Of a stretch of DNA of 9,895 nucleotides, positions 1 to 9,895 are shown piece by piece (position 1 is the stretch's first letter; the number at the start of each line of letters is the position of its first letter). The translations under genes were made by a program, and so were the position numbers. The notes beneath the pieces were generated by a model. The model searched no databases. It was not told where the DNA came from and saw only the letters and a list, made by a program, of their open reading frames with translations. Source of the stretch: Escherichia coli (lineage in GTDB: Bacteria > Pseudomonadota > Gammaproteobacteria > Enterobacterales > Enterobacteriaceae); the NCBI RefSeq assembly GCF_003334355.1, contig NZ_QOWP01000057.1; one strand, 5' to 3'.

Positions 1-116
1 TGAATCTGAGGCAGCACCTGGCACGGCTGGGACGGAAGTCGCTGTCGTTCTCAAAATCGGTGGAGCTGCATGACAAAGTCATCGGGCATTATCTGAACAT
101 AAAACACTATCAATAA
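1..116 (+). CDS. insB: IS1 transposase InsB, C-terminal portion (5' end outside window)
   Basis: Frame starting at 3 translates to [37 protein letters not shown] with stop TAA at 114-116, which is the recalled InsB C-terminus. No start codon in window. Confidence 0.8.
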
Positions 117-131
117 GTTGGAGTCATTACC
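1..131 (+). mobile_element. IS1 insertion sequence, right-end fragment (element continues upstream of window start)
   Basis: Positions 1-131 match, from memory of the IS1 sequence, the InsB C-terminal coding region followed by the terminal inverted repeat (...CACTATCAATAAGTTGGAGTCATTACC ending at 131). Flanking DNA starts at 132. Confidence 0.85.
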
Positions 132-717: not shown

Positions 718-878
718 ATTATTTATAAAACAGATATTTAAAAGAATATCTTTAGTTTTTGAAGACCACCGCAAGTGTTCGTCTGGCTTCACATGGCATC
801 TTCCTCTTAGAAAAAGATCGACATATTTTGTGACACGAATTGCAAATCTGGTTTTGTTGTATGGATTGCGTGATTTTT

Positions 879-906
879 GATCTGGTATAACAGGTATAAA
901 GGTGCA
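879..906. promoter_or_regulatory. NanR-type operator: GGTATA-ACA-GGTATA-AA-GGTGCA repeats immediately preceded by a GATC Dam site
   Basis: GATC at 879-882; GGTATA at 884-889 and 893-898; degenerate third repeat GGTGCA at 901-906. Tandem GGTATA hexamers are the recognised NanR binding motif, and such a site is known in the fimB-nanC intergenic region. Confidence 0.6.
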
Positions 907-1321: not shown

Positions 1322-2038
1322 ATGAAAAAGGCTAAAATACTTTCTGGCGTATTATTACTGTGCTTTTCGTCACCATTAATTTCTCAGGCTGCGACACTGG
1401 ACGTACGTGGTGGATATCGTAGCGGAAGCCATGCCTATGAGACTCGACTCAAAGTCAGTGAGGGATGGCAAAATGGATGGTGGGCAAGCATGGAAAGTAA
1501 TACCTGGAATACCATTCATGATAATAAAAAGGAAAATGCCGCACTCAATGATGTTCAGGTTGAAGTTAATTACGCGATTAAACTTGATGATCAATGGACG
1601 GTGCGCCCGGGAATGTTAACGCATTTTAGCAGCAACGGCACCCGCTACGGACCCTACGTAAAACTGTCCTGGGACGCGACAAAAGATCTTAATTTTGGCA
1701 TTCGCTATCGTTACGACTGGAAAGCTTACCGACAACAAGACTTATCCGGTGATATGTCTCGTGATAACGTTCATCGTTGGGATGGATATGTCACTTACCA
1801 TATTAATAGTGATTTCACCTTCGCATGGCAAACGACGCTATACAGCAAACAGAACGATTATCGCTATGCAAACCATAAGAAATGGGCGACGGAAAATGCA
1901 TTTGTTCTACAATACCATATGACGCCCGATATTACGCCATACATAGAATATGACTACCTTGACCGTCAGGGTGTTTACAACGGCAGAGATAATTTATCGG
2001 AAAACAGTTATCGCATTGGTGTGTCATTTAAACTGTAG
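1322..2038 (+). CDS. nanC: N-acetylneuraminic acid outer-membrane channel NanC (KdgM-family porin), 238 aa
   Basis: ORF-track frame 1313-2038. Chosen start is the ATG at 1322 (MKKAKILSGVLLLCFSSPLISQA..., signal peptide ending AQA-A); the track start at 1313 is an upstream GTG. Sequence recognised as E. coli NanC (YjhA). Stop TAG 2036-2038. Confidence 0.93.
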   Translation: MKKAKILSGVLLLCFSSPLISQAATLDVRGGYRSGSHAYETRLKVSEGWQNGWWASMESNTWNTIHDNKKENAALNDVQVEVNYAIKLDDQWTVRPGMLTHFSSNGTRYGPYVKLSWDATKDLNFGIRYRYDWKAYRQQDLSGDMSRDNVHRWDGYVTYHINSDFTFAWQTTLYSKQNDYRYANHKKWATENAFVLQYHMTPDITPYIEYDYLDRQGVYNGRDNLSENSYRIGVSFKL

Positions 2039-2057: not shown

Positions 2058-3164
2058 ATGAATAAAACAATAACGGCGCTTGCTATCATAATGGCTTCAT
2101 TTGCCGCAAACGCGTCTGTATTACCGGAAACTCCTGTGCCATTTAAAAGTGGTACCGGAGCAATTGATAACGACACTGTCTACATTGGTTTAGGTAGCGC
2201 AGGTACAGCATGGTACAAGCTGGATACACAGGCCAAAGATAAAAAATGGACAGCGTTAGCTGCATTCCCTGGTGGACCGAGAGATCAAGCAACCTCTGCA
2301 TTTATTGATGGTAATCTGTATGTGTTTGGCGGCATTGGCAAAAACAGCGAGGGCTTGACTCAGGTATTTAATGACGTACACAAATACAACCCCAAAACCA
2401 ATAGCTGGGTTAAATTGATGTCGCACGCGCCGATGGGCATGGCGGGCCATGTGACTTTTGTACACAACGGCAAGGCTTATGTTACTGGCGGTGTTAACCA
2501 GAATATCTTCAATGGCTATTTTGAAGATCTCAACGAAGCTGGAAAAGATTCAACCACTATAGATAAAATCAACGCCCACTATTTTGACAAAAAAGCAGAA
2601 GATTATTTCTTCAATAAGTTTCTGTTGTCTTTTGATCCCTCTACACAGCAATGGAGTTACGCTGGCGAATCTCCCTGGTACGGAACGGCTGGTGCGGCGG
2701 TTGTGAATAAAGGTGATAAAACCTGGCTTATTAATGGCGAAGCCAAACCAGGATTGCGAACGGATGCCGTATTTGAACTTGATTTCACCGGTAATAATTT
2801 AAAATGGAATAAGCTTGCTCCCGTCGCATCACCAGATGGCGTCGCTGGCGGTTTTGCAGGCATGAGCAATGACTCACTTATATTTGCCGGAGGGGCCGGA
2901 TTCAAAGGTTCACGAGAAAATTACCAGAACGGTAAGAACTATGCGCATGAAGGCCTGAAAAAATCATATAGCGCTGATATTCATCTTTGGCATAACGGGA
3001 AATGGGATAAATCGGGCGAATTATCGCAAGGTCGGGCCTACGGAGTATCATTGCCCTGGAATAATAGTTTATTAATTATTGGCGGTGAAACTGCAGGCGG
3101 CAAAGCGGTGACGGATTCAGTTTTAATTTCTGTGAAGGATAATAAAGTCACAGTACAAAACTAA
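2058..3164 (+). CDS. nanM: N-acetylneuraminate mutarotase NanM (Kelch-repeat beta-propeller, periplasmic), 368 aa
   Basis: ORF-track frame 1950-3164. Chosen start is the ATG at 2058 preceded by AGGAGA (2044-2049); the track start at 1950 overlaps the nanC 3' end. MNKTITALAIIMASFAANASV... signal peptide; recognised as NanM (YjhT). Confidence 0.93.
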   Translation: MNKTITALAIIMASFAANASVLPETPVPFKSGTGAIDNDTVYIGLGSAGTAWYKLDTQAKDKKWTALAAFPGGPRDQATSAFIDGNLYVFGGIGKNSEGLTQVFNDVHKYNPKTNSWVKLMSHAPMGMAGHVTFVHNGKAYVTGGVNQNIFNGYFEDLNEAGKDSTTIDKINAHYFDKKAEDYFFNKFLLSFDPSTQQWSYAGESPWYGTAGAAVVNKGDKTWLINGEAKPGLRTDAVFELDFTGNNLKWNKLAPVASPDGVAGGFAGMSNDSLIFAGGAGFKGSRENYQNGKNYAHEGLKKSYSADIHLWHNGKWDKSGELSQGRAYGVSLPWNNSLLIIGGETAGGKAVTDSVLISVKDNKVTVQN

Positions 3165-3228: not shown

Positions 3229-4209
3229 ATGAACGCAATAATATCGCCCGATTATTACTATGTTCTTACCGTTGCTGGTCAGTCTAATGCCATGGCGTAT
3301 GGCGAAGGACTACCATTACCGGACAAGGAAGATGCGCCTCATCCCAGAATTAAACAATTAGCGAGATTTGCGCATACACATCCCGGAGGCCCGTCATGTC
3401 ACTTTAACGACATTATTCCACTGACTCACTGCCCACACGATGTTCAGGATATGCAGGGTTATCACCATCCTCTGGCAACGAATCATCAAACACAGTACGG
3501 CACCGTTGGCCAGGCACTACATATAGCACGGAAATTACTGCCCTTTATTCCTGATAATGCAGGGGTTCTCATCGTTCCGTGTTGCCGTGGCGGATCGGCT
3601 TTTACCGCGGGCAGCGAAGGGACATATTCAGAACGGCACGGAGCCAGCCATGATGCTTGTCGTTGGGGAACGGATACTCCGCTATACCAGGATTTAGTCA
3701 GCAGAACGCGAGCCGCACTGGCAAAAAATCCGCAGAACAAATTCCTCGGCGTATGCTGGATGCAAGGCGAATTTGACTTAATGACCAGTGACTACGCGTC
3801 ACACCCTCAACACTTTAATCATATGGTTGACGCCTTTCGTAGGGATCTAAAACAATACCATTCTCAGCTTAATAAAATTACTGACGCGCCGTGGTTTTGC
3901 GGCGATACCACCTGGTACTGGAAAGAAAATTTCCCTCATGCGTATGAAGCTATTTATGGCAATTATCAAAATAATGTTCTAGCCAATATTATTTTCGTCG
4001 ACTTCCAGCAACAAGGTGCAAGAGGACTGACGAACGCGCCTGATGAAGATCCGGACGATTTAAGCACGGGATATTACGGTTCAGCGTACCGGTCACCGGA
4101 GAACTGGACGACGGCACTGCGAAGCAGTCATTTCAGCGCGGCAGCCCGTCGAGGGATTATTTCTGACAGGTTTGTAGAAGCAATTTTGCAGTTTTGGCGC
4201 GAAAGGTGA
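3229..4209 (+). CDS. nanS: 9-O-acetyl-N-acetylneuraminate esterase NanS, 326 aa
   Basis: ORF-track frame 3202-4209. Chosen start is the ATG at 3229 (MNAIISPDYYYVLTVAGQSNAMAYGEG...); the track start at 3202 is a TTG. Recognised as NanS (YjhS). Stop TGA 4207-4209. Confidence 0.9.
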   Translation: MNAIISPDYYYVLTVAGQSNAMAYGEGLPLPDKEDAPHPRIKQLARFAHTHPGGPSCHFNDIIPLTHCPHDVQDMQGYHHPLATNHQTQYGTVGQALHIARKLLPFIPDNAGVLIVPCCRGGSAFTAGSEGTYSERHGASHDACRWGTDTPLYQDLVSRTRAALAKNPQNKFLGVCWMQGEFDLMTSDYASHPQHFNHMVDAFRRDLKQYHSQLNKITDAPWFCGDTTWYWKENFPHAYEAIYGNYQNNVLANIIFVDFQQQGARGLTNAPDEDPDDLSTGYYGSAYRSPENWTTALRSSHFSAAARRGIISDRFVEAILQFWRER

Positions 4210-4219
4210 GCGTTCATTA

Positions 4220-4488
4220 ATTTGATTTATTCGCATCCATCAGCGCTTTTAACTCCTCCGGCGTAAACGGTGGTTTGCGTCGGTGCAACATCGCATGGCA
4301 ATTAGGGCACACAGGAAGTAAAAAAACATATGAGATCAAGGTAATATATCTTCGCTTGCAGGCTTGAACCGCAGAAAATTTGCGAGCATGATCGCAATTA
4401 TTTCACTGCCAGGGATATCAATGGCTTCCAGTAAATCGCTGACGAGCCTTTTTTTGCTCTCCAGCAAATCCGTAAGCAGCGTGACCCA
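4220..4488 (-). pseudogene. HNH endonuclease remnant (C-terminal CxxCH zinc-finger region), frameshifted, no start codon
   Basis: - strand frame with codons at 4402..4220 ends ...LISYVFLLPVCPNCHAMLHRRKPPFTPEELKALMDANKSN* (stop 4217-4219). An adjacent - strand frame (4488..4339) gives the protein-like VTLLTDLLESKKRLVSDLLEAIDIPGSEIIAIMLANFLRFKPASEDILP. The two segments are in different frames and both are bounded by stops upstream. Confidence 0.4.
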
Positions 4489-4857
4489 TTATTTCGCAAA
4501 CATGTATTACGCGCTTATAACTACCAGTGCGCAATATGTAGCTTTAATATTTGTTACGGCAACTCCACCGTCTCACTGGAAGCGACACATATAAAATGGA
4601 AACAACATGGTGGCCCTTGTGAAATTCCCAATGGCCTGGCGCTTTGCGCGATACATCATAAAGCCTTTGATAAAGGAACGATTGGCCTGGATGAAAATAT
4701 GCGGGTACTGGTATTGGATGCGGTAAACGGCGGAGAGATCATTGAGAGGTCATTCTGGGATTTTGACGGAAAAATTATTGCGTTGCCACAGGTGCGTAAA
4801 AATTACCCTTTTGAGGGGGTTGTAGAGTGGCATCGGAAAGAGTTTTTTAGGGGGTGA
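4435..4857 (+). pseudogene. HNH_2-type endonuclease remnant (N-terminally truncated; in-frame TAA at 4432-4434)
   Basis: + frame 4435-4857 translates to ...QQIRKQRDPLFRKHVLRAYNYQCAICSFNICYGNSTVSLEATHIKWKQHGGPCEIPNGLALCAIHHKAFDKGTIGLDENMRVLV...EFFRG*. This matches the recalled HNH_2 signature (FR..vL.aY..CAiC ... LEAaHI ... NGLaLC..HH.aFD.G). No plausible start codon or RBS; the upstream frame is closed by stops. Confidence 0.5.
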
Positions 4858-5518: not shown

Positions 5519-8500
5519 TTACTCGCTAACCATCTTACTGAATAATTTCTCCAGATACAATGAGCCAGTATCCTCAATAAAAAGCACATTTCTGGCTTCC
5601 AGATTCTCTTTTGAATCAGGTACGTTTACTAAGTCAACATAACAAGTTTCAGAAACAATAAATGCACTTAATGATAAGTTATCATCCGATAATTTATGTT
5701 CAAGATTCTTGATTTCTTTATATAATCCGAACTTTGGATCATCAAGATTAAGATTGCGGATGCCTTTTGGATCAATAAGACTTAACCATTGTTTACCACT
5801 TTTATCATCGACTAACCACAATAAGAAATCCGGATAAAAATTACCCGCAGTAGCAAAGCCCAGGCCTCTATTTTTAGAATCCGCATTTCTTAGCAGATAT
5901 AAACTTTTATCACCAATAATTTTCTGCCCTTTTGTCGAATCAACAAAAGACTGAAGATCATGGACAAAAGTAATCTCACTTGATGCACCCAGTGTTGCCG
6001 GTCGCATTTTTAGCGGTATGTTGGCATTTTTTTCAATCGAAAGAAGTGGATAATAGAGATGTTTATCAAAGGTAATAGCAACCATCCCGGATGCACTCCA
6101 GGATTTTGCTTTACCGATTTCGCCGTCGATGACCAATTGTTGTAATTGTTCCAGCCGACTGGCATATGCCAACCCATCATCAGTTTCTTCGATCTCGAAA
6201 TGGTACATTTTGATCATACCAGGATCATCTTCTTTCACCTGCGTGACTTCATAAAACTGACCTTCATAAGCATTTTTCAATGTGTTGTAAAAGCGATCAG
6301 TATAATCAGTCAGCAGACGAAGCATAATATCTTCCTGCTTAGCAATATCTGCATATTGCTTAATCTCAAGCTCTGAAGCTGGAATCAAAAGGGTATACCA
6401 ACTATTTCCGATCTTTGTCTTACCGGTACAAAAGTCGATCAAACGTTGTTTATCCACACGTAAATTTGACCAGCCGCGTTGTAGTTTATAATTCTGAATG
6501 GCGAGATAAAGCCGATCAAAATCAAACGCACTAATGATTTTATAATCTAACTTCGCTTCATTACGCACGTTAACCGGAGTATTGTCCCCTTTTCTGCTGG
6601 TATCAATCGACTCAAGTTTCGGGTATAGGTCCAGCTTAATATGCGGCTGCTTAATTTTCCCCTGAAAATCAGCAGGAACTTCATACAATTCGGGAAAATA
6701 GACACGTTTAAAGCCGAGTCTTTGATTATCTTTATAACCATCTTTAAGCTTAAGTGTTTTAAGCCTGGTTGCTGGCATATTTGGCCGAGTTTCAAAATTC
6801 AGCTCAAGGATCTCGTCACTTGGCGTAATCCCTTCATCTTCCAGGTATTGTTTAAAGGTTGCCATGTAATCGGCACGTACACCGAATACATTCAGTGTCT
6901 CTAATTTTTCCAGATGCAACCCTTTCGGACGCTCACCGGGTGTACTGCGTTTCAAAGAATAATTGCGACCTTTAAGGCGAACGCCACGACCAAATAACTG
7001 AATGATCTGTGAACCTTCTCCACGGCCCATATTGAGCAATCCCATCGTTGAGACGCGCCAACTGCTCCAGCCTTCAGTAAATTTTCGCGAGCCGATCAAA
7101 ATATGTAGTTGCGAGTCTTTGTCATTTAACGTATGAAAGAGTGACTTCGCAAAATCATCTCTCTGATAATCAAATGTCGTATCCTCTTCACACATTTTGT
7201 AAAGAGACGGTGCATCACCAATATTGATAAGACCAAACGGTTCGGCCTCACCAACCTGTAATGCCAGTTCACCTTTACTGCCTATTAAATTCAGAACTCG
7301 CAGTCTCTGACCTGAGTGAGTGGTGTTAAACAAACGAGAAAGAATATCTGCGTAGATATCTTCCGGGCCGTTCATTAGTGCGGTAAAGCGATTTTCAAAA
7401 ATGTTACGCTCTTTGGTATCAAGAATTCGCGCTTTATTTTCAATGAGATCTTTAATCCACGATTTTGCCTGCGATTCATGATTTAAAAACCATGCTAAAA
7501 AACGCAGTACTGCGTGAATGTCTGAATCTTCACCACTTACGGTGTTACCGACAAAAACCCATAGCGGTTTTTCGATATTAAATTCATTTAATTTTTCTTT
7601 ATTCTTATTGAATAAATATTGTTGCTGATAAAAGCTGAGCAAACACGCGGTAAAATACTCATACCGACGCTCATCTTTTTTATCCTCTTCAGGATTAAGG
7701 TTAAGAATCAGTGATTCTTTACCATAACCATCCTCATAGAAGAATTTATAGGAGTAATCGAACAGAATCGATTTCCCATAGACTTCTCGTGTCGCCTGAA
7801 TACGCGCATCACGTTGTTCTTCGCTGGTTAATGCTATTTGCGCTAACTGTTCTTCGCTCAGTTTACCTAAGGCAGTTGTTTCAAAAAGCAGCTTTGCTTT
7901 TTTCTTCTGAATTTCTGTTTCAACTGCCTCAACATTATTGCCACCGGCCACTGCCTGGCCAAAAGTTGCTGAATATTCAAACGCAAATCCGTCACGCGTT
8001 AATTTGTCACGACGGCGCATCCAGGCACCAGCAGCACTTCCTGTGCCTTTATGCCCTTCATCAATCAGGACCAGATTGTTGCCTTCAAATGCCTCAACGG
8101 CAACAGTTTTGTCACCCATTTCATCGGCAAGTTTATTGATATCAATAACTTCAATCGTGCCTTTAAATGGCGCGGATTTACTCTTATCGAATAACTGGTA
8201 TTGGGTAAATCCTGAGTTTTCCAGTTCATCTAAATGTTGCTTCGATAGGCGTTCATCCGGCGTAAGCAGGATGATTTTATCCGGGTAATGATGGCTATTA
8301 CCGTTCTGGAAATAATGTAAATATTGCAAAATATTGACATGTAATAGCAGTGTCTTACCAGAACCAGTAGCGTTCCAGTATGCCAGTTTATTCAAATCAT
8401 CCAGAACGTATGATTTGAACTGATTAGCCCGGTCTTTTGCTGTTTTATCATTTTCAGCATTGTATGCTGCCAGCTCGTTATTTAGCCCATCGAGTAATTG

Positions 8501-8899
8501 CTGTTTACGGTTGAAGTACCAGTCCAGGTAGATCTCGGTAAACAGAAGCGACAAGTACTGAAAATATTTCATGTTCAGCACTGTGTCTTCTTTACGATTA
8601 CGGTGCTCGGTTATCTGCTGCCAGTGCTGCACGATATTGAGATCGTAACGACGCAGTTCATCGAGATCGATAAGATCGACCTCGAATAAATAGTTACTCA
8701 GCTCATGGAAGAATAAGCTTTGGCCATCTTCATGGATGCCTTCAAAGCGATCCTCGCCTAACCGATTCTTCAAACCTTGCAATGTGCCATCTTTAAAAAA
8801 ATGGAACATAAAGCGGTTTAAAACCAACTGCTTATGAAAGCTCAGCTTGCTGTTAGTCTCTTTTTTAACTGCTTTACCGGTGGTCGGTTTTTTAGCCAT
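5519..8899 (-). CDS. SF2 helicase with C-terminal PD-(D/E)xK nuclease motif; Type III restriction Res-like subunit (1126 aa)
   Basis: Intact ORF. Strong RBS GGAGGAGG 7 nt upstream of the ATG at 8899. Walker A ATGSGKT (aa 177-183; 8351-8371), motif II LIDEGH (aa 278-283; 8051-8062), motif VI QLFGRGVR (aa 634-641; 6977-7000), and C-terminal YPDFLLWLV...LIDPK (aa 1022-1045; 5765-5833) fitting PD-x(n)-(D/E)xK. Helicase-then-nuclease order matches Type III Res. Confidence 0.8.
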   Translation of the reverse strand: MAKKPTTGKAVKKETNSKLSFHKQLVLNRFMFHFFKDGTLQGLKNRLGEDRFEGIHEDGQSLFFHELSNYLFEVDLIDLDELRRYDLNIVQHWQQITEHRNRKEDTVLNMKYFQYLSLLFTEIYLDWYFNRKQQLLDGLNNELAAYNAENDKTAKDRANQFKSYVLDDLNKLAYWNATGSGKTLLLHVNILQYLHYFQNGNSHHYPDKIILLTPDERLSKQHLDELENSGFTQYQLFDKSKSAPFKGTIEVIDINKLADEMGDKTVAVEAFEGNNLVLIDEGHKGTGSAAGAWMRRRDKLTRDGFAFEYSATFGQAVAGGNNVEAVETEIQKKKAKLLFETTALGKLSEEQLAQIALTSEEQRDARIQATREVYGKSILFDYSYKFFYEDGYGKESLILNLNPEEDKKDERRYEYFTACLLSFYQQQYLFNKNKEKLNEFNIEKPLWVFVGNTVSGEDSDIHAVLRFLAWFLNHESQAKSWIKDLIENKARILDTKERNIFENRFTALMNGPEDIYADILSRLFNTTHSGQRLRVLNLIGSKGELALQVGEAEPFGLINIGDAPSLYKMCEEDTTFDYQRDDFAKSLFHTLNDKDSQLHILIGSRKFTEGWSSWRVSTMGLLNMGRGEGSQIIQLFGRGVRLKGRNYSLKRSTPGERPKGLHLEKLETLNVFGVRADYMATFKQYLEDEGITPSDEILELNFETRPNMPATRLKTLKLKDGYKDNQRLGFKRVYFPELYEVPADFQGKIKQPHIKLDLYPKLESIDTSRKGDNTPVNVRNEAKLDYKIISAFDFDRLYLAIQNYKLQRGWSNLRVDKQRLIDFCTGKTKIGNSWYTLLIPASELEIKQYADIAKQEDIMLRLLTDYTDRFYNTLKNAYEGQFYEVTQVKEDDPGMIKMYHFEIEETDDGLAYASRLEQLQQLVIDGEIGKAKSWSASGMVAITFDKHLYYPLLSIEKNANIPLKMRPATLGASSEITFVHDLQSFVDSTKGQKIIGDKSLYLLRNADSKNRGLGFATAGNFYPDFLLWLVDDKSGKQWLSLIDPKGIRNLNLDDPKFGLYKEIKNLEHKLSDDNLSLSAFIVSETCYVDLVNVPDSKENLEARNVLFIEDTGSLYLEKLFSKMVSE

Positions 8900-8901
8900 T
8901 C

Positions 8902-9873
8902 TTAAACCTCCTCCGCAAACATCAGGTTCAAGAATTCAGGTTCGATCTGGCGGATTTTCAGGCTACGAACAATCTCGCCGTCTTCTTCATCAACGGTAAA
9001 GGCGGTAGGTAAGTTATGATCGCCATTGATATAGATAACGTCGAACGTATTTTCTTTTGCATATAAATCGAATCTGTTGGCATATTTATTCAATTCTTCA
9101 TAGCCGATCTTGTCGCAATCGCGCCACAGAATAAGGGTACGCTCGCCAGTTGGTAGCGTTCCTTCAACACGCACATAGCCACGTTCGATATTGGATTCGA
9201 TGGATTTCACATGTAAGCCAATGAGATAGTTGAAAGTTTCAACTAAATCGATGTTCTTACGCTCAGTAGCACCTGCGGAATCCGTTGTAACATCCATTTC
9301 GTAGTTAAATGGTTTTTTGAAATTATCAGTATTGAGTAGTGAGCCTTTGCTTTCTGTTTCAAGCATATAGTTAAGAACATAATCCTCTCGAATTTCTTTA
9401 AGATCGTCGAAAAGATCCTTTGTTGTTTCAGTACGTTTCAGTGCTATATTGTTAAGAGTATCCTCAAAACTCTCAATTTTAATATATTTTATTAATGTCT
9501 GCTCAACTGGATTACAGCTTAGTGCTTTTCCATACTTCCAGTCAGTTGTAAAAATAGCTTTTTTTACTCTAGGCAAGGTAACAGAATAAAAATATTCACC
9601 TTGTTCGACCAAGCTAAATTTTCGAAAACCATTATCATCCCTATTCATATCTACCACTGCATGCCCTGTAGTACCAGAGCCAGCAAAATAGTCTAAGAAA
9701 TGAGCATACTTCGAATTACTAAGCGACTCTAAACATTCCTTAACCGCATAAATACTTTTTGGAAAAGAAAAATTAATCTGAGTCACGTTAAACAAACTAT
9801 TTAATAGTTCCGAACCATTGAACCGCCCCGGGTTTCCTGGAGAGTGTTTTATCTGTGAACTCAGGCTGCCAGA
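8902..9873 (-). CDS. Type III Mod-like N6/N4 DNA methyltransferase, C-terminal portion (AdoMet motif I plus C-terminal domain); reading frame interrupted upstream
   Basis: Open frame 9873..8902 contains FSFPKS...LDYFAGSGTTGHAV (motif I at 9667-9693) followed by RKFSLVEQGEYF, the pattern seen in beta-class and Type III Mod methyltransferases. The stop TAA overlaps the res RBS with only a 2-nt gap to the res ATG. In-frame stop at 9874-9876; a different frame is open 9800-9895. The catalytic DPPY-type motif is not in the window. Confidence 0.65.
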   Translation of the reverse strand, partial: SGSLSSQIKHSPGNPGRFNGSELLNSLFNVTQINFSFPKSIYAVKECLESLSNSKYAHFLDYFAGSGTTGHAVVDMNRDDNGFRKFSLVEQGEYFYSVTLPRVKKAIFTTDWKYGKALSCNPVEQTLIKYIKIESFEDTLNNIALKRTETTKDLFDDLKEIREDYVLNYMLETESKGSLLNTDNFKKPFNYEMDVTTDSAGATERKNIDLVETFNYLIGLHVKSIESNIERGYVRVEGTLPTGERTLILWRDCDKIGYEELNKYANRFDLYAKENTFDVIYINGDHNLPTAFTVDEEDGEIVRSLKIRQIEPEFLNLMFAEEV

Positions 9874-9895
9874 TCATCGTTTCCGATGGAAGCAT

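Follow-up and report, generated by a model that had tools for sequence, protein, structure and literature searches.

Escherichia coli K-12 has three NanR operators, and the one closest to the element analysed here is O_NR in the fimB-nanC (yjhA) intergenic region (Sohanpal et al. 2004 PNAS; El-Labany et al. 2003), which represses nanCMS and activates fimB from ~760 bp upstream. The operator of nanATEK-yhcH carries three hexamers, (GGTATA)3 (Kalivoda et al. 2003; Horne et al. 2021, PMC8012715), and the remaining one precedes nanXY (yjhBC). Genomic SELEX has placed NanR on the nanC/fimB spacer of K-12, where it was bound in vitro even with Neu5Ac (PMC5934670). At nanA, nanC and yjhB, NanR binding falls within 5 bp of a GATC; all three of these sites are reported to be protected from methylation, with methylation rising in long-term stationary phase (PMC5155068). 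In the pap (Lrp; PMC11316696) and agn43 (OxyR) switches a regulator beside or over a GATC likewise shields it from Dam, however, in these two the regulator's own binding sites contain the GATCs, and it has been demonstrated that their methylation prevents binding and causes phase variation that is inherited. A block of NanR by methylation, in contrast, is described as not yet shown (PMC5155068), and many species do without the GATC.

The window, i.e., the whole 9,895-nt stretch of E. coli chromosomal DNA that was analysed, contains a related element, GATCTGGTATAACAGGTATAAAGGTGCA, at 879-906. An earlier note on this DNA had read it as a NanR-type operator with a directly adjacent GATC, kept as a sialic-acid-responsive element despite a nearby IS1.

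Operator architecture and orthology with K-12

The element is composed as GATC-T-GGTATA-ACA-GGTATA-AA-GGTGCA, and its parts are as follows.

879-882, no strand assigned: Dam site GATC, corresponding by orthology to the GATC beside the K-12 NanR site, with a single base (T883) between it and repeat 1
884-889, plus strand: NanR operator repeat 1, GGTATA, followed by the spacer ACA
893-898, plus strand: NanR operator repeat 2, GGTATA, followed by the spacer AA
901-906, plus strand: third, degenerate repeat, GGTGCA, matching the hexamer at four of six positions

The array at 884-906 has the form of a NanR operator, i.e., two to three direct GGTATA repeats that are 2-3 nt apart, and the GATC at 879-882, 1 nt from repeat 1, has the position of a regulator-protected Dam site, within or beside the footprint. 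The description in the earlier note, GGTATA hexamers in tandem and a GATC directly on their 5' side, is correct for this arrangement, with the refinement that one base separates the GATC from repeat 1 and that only two of the hexamers are perfect.

Aligned to the fimB-nanC intergenic region of K-12 MG1655, positions 879-908 are 100% identical and lie at the orthologous position, and there are zero differences from K-12 over 753-908. The site is hence present in K-12 and shows no divergence, and the proposal of a NanR-type operator is borne out by this alignment and by a 25-mer, GATCTGGTATAACAGGTATAAAGGT, common to the nanA and nanX operators. The operator is located ~420 bp upstream of the nanC ATG and ~750-770 bp from the inferred fimB start, the latter in agreement with the published distance of ~760 bp. 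Sequence, spacing to nanC and the adjacent conserved core are all shared with K-12, and the element at 879-906 is, as judged from the alignment, the orthologue of O_NR of the K-12 fimB-nanC region, i.e., an already known, ordinary and intact operator. Unlike in K-12, IS1 stands here in place of fimB and the other genes of its operon, and only the nanCMS-repressing role can remain.

The genes that it precedes are intact.

1322-2038, plus strand: nanC, 100% identical to K-12 NanC
2058-3164, plus strand: nanM, 98% identical to K-12
3229-4209, plus strand: nanS, 97% identical to K-12

The operator thus belongs to the promoter region of nanC-nanM-nanS, an operon for the use of sialic acid that lies downstream of it, and its overlap with the core promoter is predicted (see below). 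The gene for the regulator is outside the 9.9-kb window; of the 5426 complete E. coli genomes compared, 5411 (99.7%) have nanR-nanA, and it is probable that nanR is present in the source genome.

The 25-mer GATCTGGTATAACAGGTATAAAGGT takes in the GATC as well as both spacers, ACA and AA, and its presence at the K-12 nanA and nanX (yjhB) operators goes together with a GATC at the same one-base distance in all three K-12 operators. It is followed by ATA at both nanA and nanX/yjhB, whereas GGTGCA as third hexamer is confined, among the K-12 three, to the nanC copy. The nanA operator accordingly differs in its third hexamer, GGTATA, and furthermore in its distance from the start codon, ~60 bp compared with ~420 bp here. 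The nanXY operator likewise has a perfect third repeat, and its downstream sequence is unrelated, however, its 5' flank is paralogous to that of nanC and includes the TGTGAC...CAAA element and TTGTTnTnTGGATTGC. This paralogy between the nanC and nanX upstream regions is recognisable for ~60 bp 5' of the operator; window positions 780-905 are 76% identical over ~125 bp to the K-12 nanX upstream region (L005, 8519-8650). Because the similarity spans more than the operator alone, it suggests that a whole promoter-operator cassette may have been duplicated between nanC and nanX.

Conservation of the operator and of the adjacent GATC

An 81-bp stretch around the operator was searched for in 5426 complete E. 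coli genomes, and 5072 of them carry it with a coverage of at least 80%, in agreement with the published nanCMS prevalence of ~93% (PMC10088187). Among nine E. coli strains picked to span the identity range, positions 879-908 are invariant, compared with 10.8% variable intergenic columns in the same alignment, and only two columns vary over 817-908. The operator is enclosed by a larger conserved block, which is also evident in a divergent Escherichia genome (E69) retrieved by genome scan.

817-903, plus strand: conserved regulatory core of 87 bp enclosing the operator, 98.9% identical in Escherichia E69, with flanks at 56-71%

The NanR-adjacent GATC is invariant in the nine strains and in E69, and E69 has GGTACA as its third hexamer.

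When one genome of each bacterial species was scanned for the 20-mer GGTATAACAGGTATAAAGGT, 90 loci were returned, nearly all from Enterobacterales and mostly of the nanA type. The exact 20-mer is kept across ~20 Enterobacterales genera (loci L007-L096), and the operator is in this respect unusually rigid. Three of the operator regions come from assemblies labelled as a Bacteroides MAG, Methylobacterium mesophilicum and Chryseobacterium (L011, L077 and L080). L011 and L077 match E. coli nanC-type and nanX-type regions and L080 matches a Citrobacter sequence (L068); these enterobacterial contigs are very likely contamination.

The third hexamer varies at the 90 loci (GGTATA in 45, GGTATG in 21 and GGTACA in 16), and for that reason the degenerate third repeat at nanC falls within the range of natural variation. 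Decay of this repeat after the IS1 event was considered and rejected, since GGTGCA is also found in K-12 and in all sampled E. coli. With GGTGCA in this place, a third dimer may occupy the operator less well than it does at nanA.

The sequence 5' of repeat 1 is conserved to different degrees. The dinucleotide CT directly before the repeat is found in 88 of the 90 enterobacterial operators, a G at -5 in ~80% and an A at -4 in ~62%, and the full GATCT in 49 (54%) of the operators with the exact 20-mer, the remainder being one base off (GGTCT, GTTCT, AGTCT, TATCT and others). Lineages that keep the GATC are Escherichia, most Citrobacter and Lelliottia, and single-base loss is seen in Rahnella, Kluyvera, Raoultella and Atlantibacter; both states occur within the single genera Citrobacter, Buttiauxella and Trabulsiella. 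Since only 54% of otherwise identical operators carry it, the adjacent GATC would be a common but not obligatory, accessory feature of this operator type rather than an essential one.

Promoter geometry and the role of the Dam site

T883 and G884 together with TATAAC at 886-891 read TGgTATAAC (883-891), which follows the pattern TGnTATAAC. By analogy with the geometry at nanA, repeat 1 probably lies within the extended -10 element of the nanC promoter, and repression would be by promoter occlusion. An extended -10 element of this kind would in addition account for the CT that almost always precedes repeat 1, whatever the species. A scan with a generic sigma-70 consensus called no promoter at the operator and found no -35 match, however, we do not count this against the promoter, because a -35 match is missing from CRP-dependent and extended -10 promoters in general. 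CRP reportedly activates nanC, and two further elements upstream of the operator bear on this geometry.

816-819, no strand assigned: second GATC, from the sequence and the K-12 alignment
829-844, plus strand: CRP-like half-palindrome, TGTGAcacgaaTTGCA, with two mismatches, its centre 61.5 bp upstream of the predicted +1 (~898)

On its own, a match to the CRP consensus such as that at 829-844 is expected at chance frequency, and it is conserved in the nine E. coli strains and in E69. The same geometry of CRP site and start was counted on the K-12 sequence at nanA. We infer from its position that TGTGAcacgaaTTGCA is a CRP site, and it probably overlaps the NagC site O_NC1. The GATC at 816-819 is presumably the NagC-adjacent Dam site of K-12 (Sohanpal et al. 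2004). It is changed to TATC in strain SH21PTE31 and in E69, both of which keep the NanR-adjacent GATC.

The following mechanism is proposed. NanR dimers would bind the tandem GGTATA repeats cooperatively, and since the predicted extended -10 element (883-891, predicted +1 near 898) shares bases with repeat 1, bound NanR would exclude RNA polymerase. The GATC would fall within the spacer of the predicted promoter, between about -19 and -16, and bound NanR would cover it, one base upstream of the repeat, so that Dam could not methylate it. Neu5Ac would weaken NanR binding, by which nanC-nanM-nanS would be derepressed and the GATC opened to Dam. In this strain the operator would serve nanCMS only, as fimB, which is activated by NanR from this site in K-12, is lost. 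We hold this account, a NanR operator of nanCMS with a Dam site, acting by exclusion of RNA polymerase, shielding of the GATC and relief by Neu5Ac, and with no role in fimB expression, with high confidence.

The identity, orthology, conservation and intact target genes in this account were computed, the overlap with the promoter and the +1 are deduced from the geometry, and NanR binding, the Neu5Ac response and protection from methylation would carry over from published K-12 experiments on the identical sequence. NanR is said to have a footprint of roughly 30 bp over the nanA promoter. The suggestion in the earlier note that regulator binding can protect the Dam site is in agreement with the K-12 reports for the identical nanC site (PMC5155068) and for NanR on the spacer (PMC5934670). 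The persistence of NanR binding with Neu5Ac in the latter study complicates a simple release model.

A larger role for the GATC, as an epigenetic control element, is conceivable, although we regard it as doubtful. Dam methylation after release would here hinder rebinding of NanR and generate hysteresis or cell-to-cell heterogeneity in nanCMS expression, a model proposed in PMC5155068. Consistent with this are the one-base distance of the GATC in all three K-12 NanR operators, the frequencies of G and A at -5 and -4 among the 90 enterobacterial operators, the position of the GATC in the predicted promoter spacer and the 3- to 5-fold lower nanC expression of a dam mutant at 72 h (PMC5155068). 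The same study, however, found nanA expression unchanged in the dam mutant and describes a block of NanR by methylation as not yet shown. Furthermore, the GATC is kept in only 49 of the 90 operators with the identical 20-mer, with single-base gains and losses within genera, and the three E. coli copies may reflect common descent, the nanC and nanX upstream regions being paralogous. A narrower version, to which we assign still less weight, places the GATC in the spacer of a NanR-occluded extended -10 promoter, where methylation would feed back on NanR rebinding specifically in the lineages that keep the GATC. If true, it would mean epigenetic memory or bistability in the expression of the sialic-acid porin and esterase. 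The preferred reading remains that of a NanR operator that represses nanCMS and, when bound, shields its GATC.

The IS1 junction and the neighbourhood of nanCMS

The left part of the window is made up as follows.

1-131, plus strand: right end of IS1, with K-12 intergenic homology beginning exactly at base 132
132-1321: nanC-proximal 1.19 kb of the fimB-nanC intergenic region, by alignment to K-12
307-318: SlyA operator of the fimB promoter region, TTATCATGCTAA, whose reverse complement TTAGCATGATAA is O_SA1 (PMC3173223)

The end of IS1 (position 131) is 748 bp away from the operator, and with 753-908 identical to K-12 the sialic-acid-responsive element is kept despite the nearby IS1, as the earlier note had stated. 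What that note missed is the nature of the junction. The K-12 spacer continues for another ~266 bp before fimB begins at its start codon, and this strain lacks that part. The best-matching genomes run gntP-IS1-nanC, without any of the fim operon (fimB-fimH); strain C9 has a fimbrial gene fragment left on the far side of IS1. Read from these genomes, the IS1 is not a simple insertion and marks a deletion that took out fimB-fimH entirely. Exactly this IS1/intergenic junction recurs in 359 of the 5426 complete genomes of E. coli, a sign that the fim-less lineage is widespread. Judged by the survival of O_SA1 at 307-318, the deletion ends at roughly the point where fimB transcription starts, and all upstream fimB-activating elements, the operator included, are retained without a gene to activate.

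With the fim operon absent, the second role of the operator in K-12, the activation of fimB, is without a target, and the remaining role is repression of nanCMS. The gntP-IS1-nanC order in the best-matching genomes and the activation of fimB by O_NR from ~760 bp in K-12 could be taken to mean that the operator is a functionless relic here, conserved mainly for long-range activation of the deleted fimB. This is very improbable, however, as the operator also represses nanCMS, whose genes are intact here, 753-908 has no substitution relative to K-12, and the 359 genomes with the identical junction still keep the operator. A chance co-occurrence of hexamers and GATC in AT-rich intergenic DNA has a negligible probability, and was ruled out by K-12 identity, cross-species conservation and a shuffle test: GGTATA and GATC each occur at background frequency in the window, without enrichment (6 matches compared with 3.96 expected, and 40 compared with 37), but the composite GATCNGGTATANNNGGTATA, found once in the window, was recovered in none of 200 dinucleotide-preserving shuffles with one mismatch tolerated, the exact 15-mer GGTATAACAGGTATA is unique in the window, and the site, which is kept across species, agrees in sequence and orthologous position with one that was defined by experiment.

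Downstream of nanS, the window contains parts of restriction systems.

5519-8899, minus strand: Type III restriction gene (res), 1126 aa, intact
8902-9818, minus strand: C-terminal part of the Type III modification gene (mod), cut at 9818
9819-9895: end of an IS1203/IS629-like IS3-family element, interrupting mod

The IS3-family insertion in mod is absent from all top-matching genomes, no genome in the collection matches the window past 9818, and an intact res beside a disrupted mod is an unusual pairing. Between nanS and the Type III system (4217-4857) there are fragments of an HNH endonuclease and of a phosphorothioated-DNA-binding restriction endonuclease, according to the annotation in matching genomes, and these look like remnants of a decayed defence island.

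The operator is of little importance beyond annotation, the feature being already known, and the cross-species tally of the adjacent GATC is a small addition to the knowledge of NanR operators. For the organism, the finding means that a fim-less lineage, in which IS1 replaces fimB-fimH, keeps a K-12-identical control region of NanR-regulated nanCMS; since this control region and nanCMS are intact, sialic-acid-inducible uptake and processing should still work.
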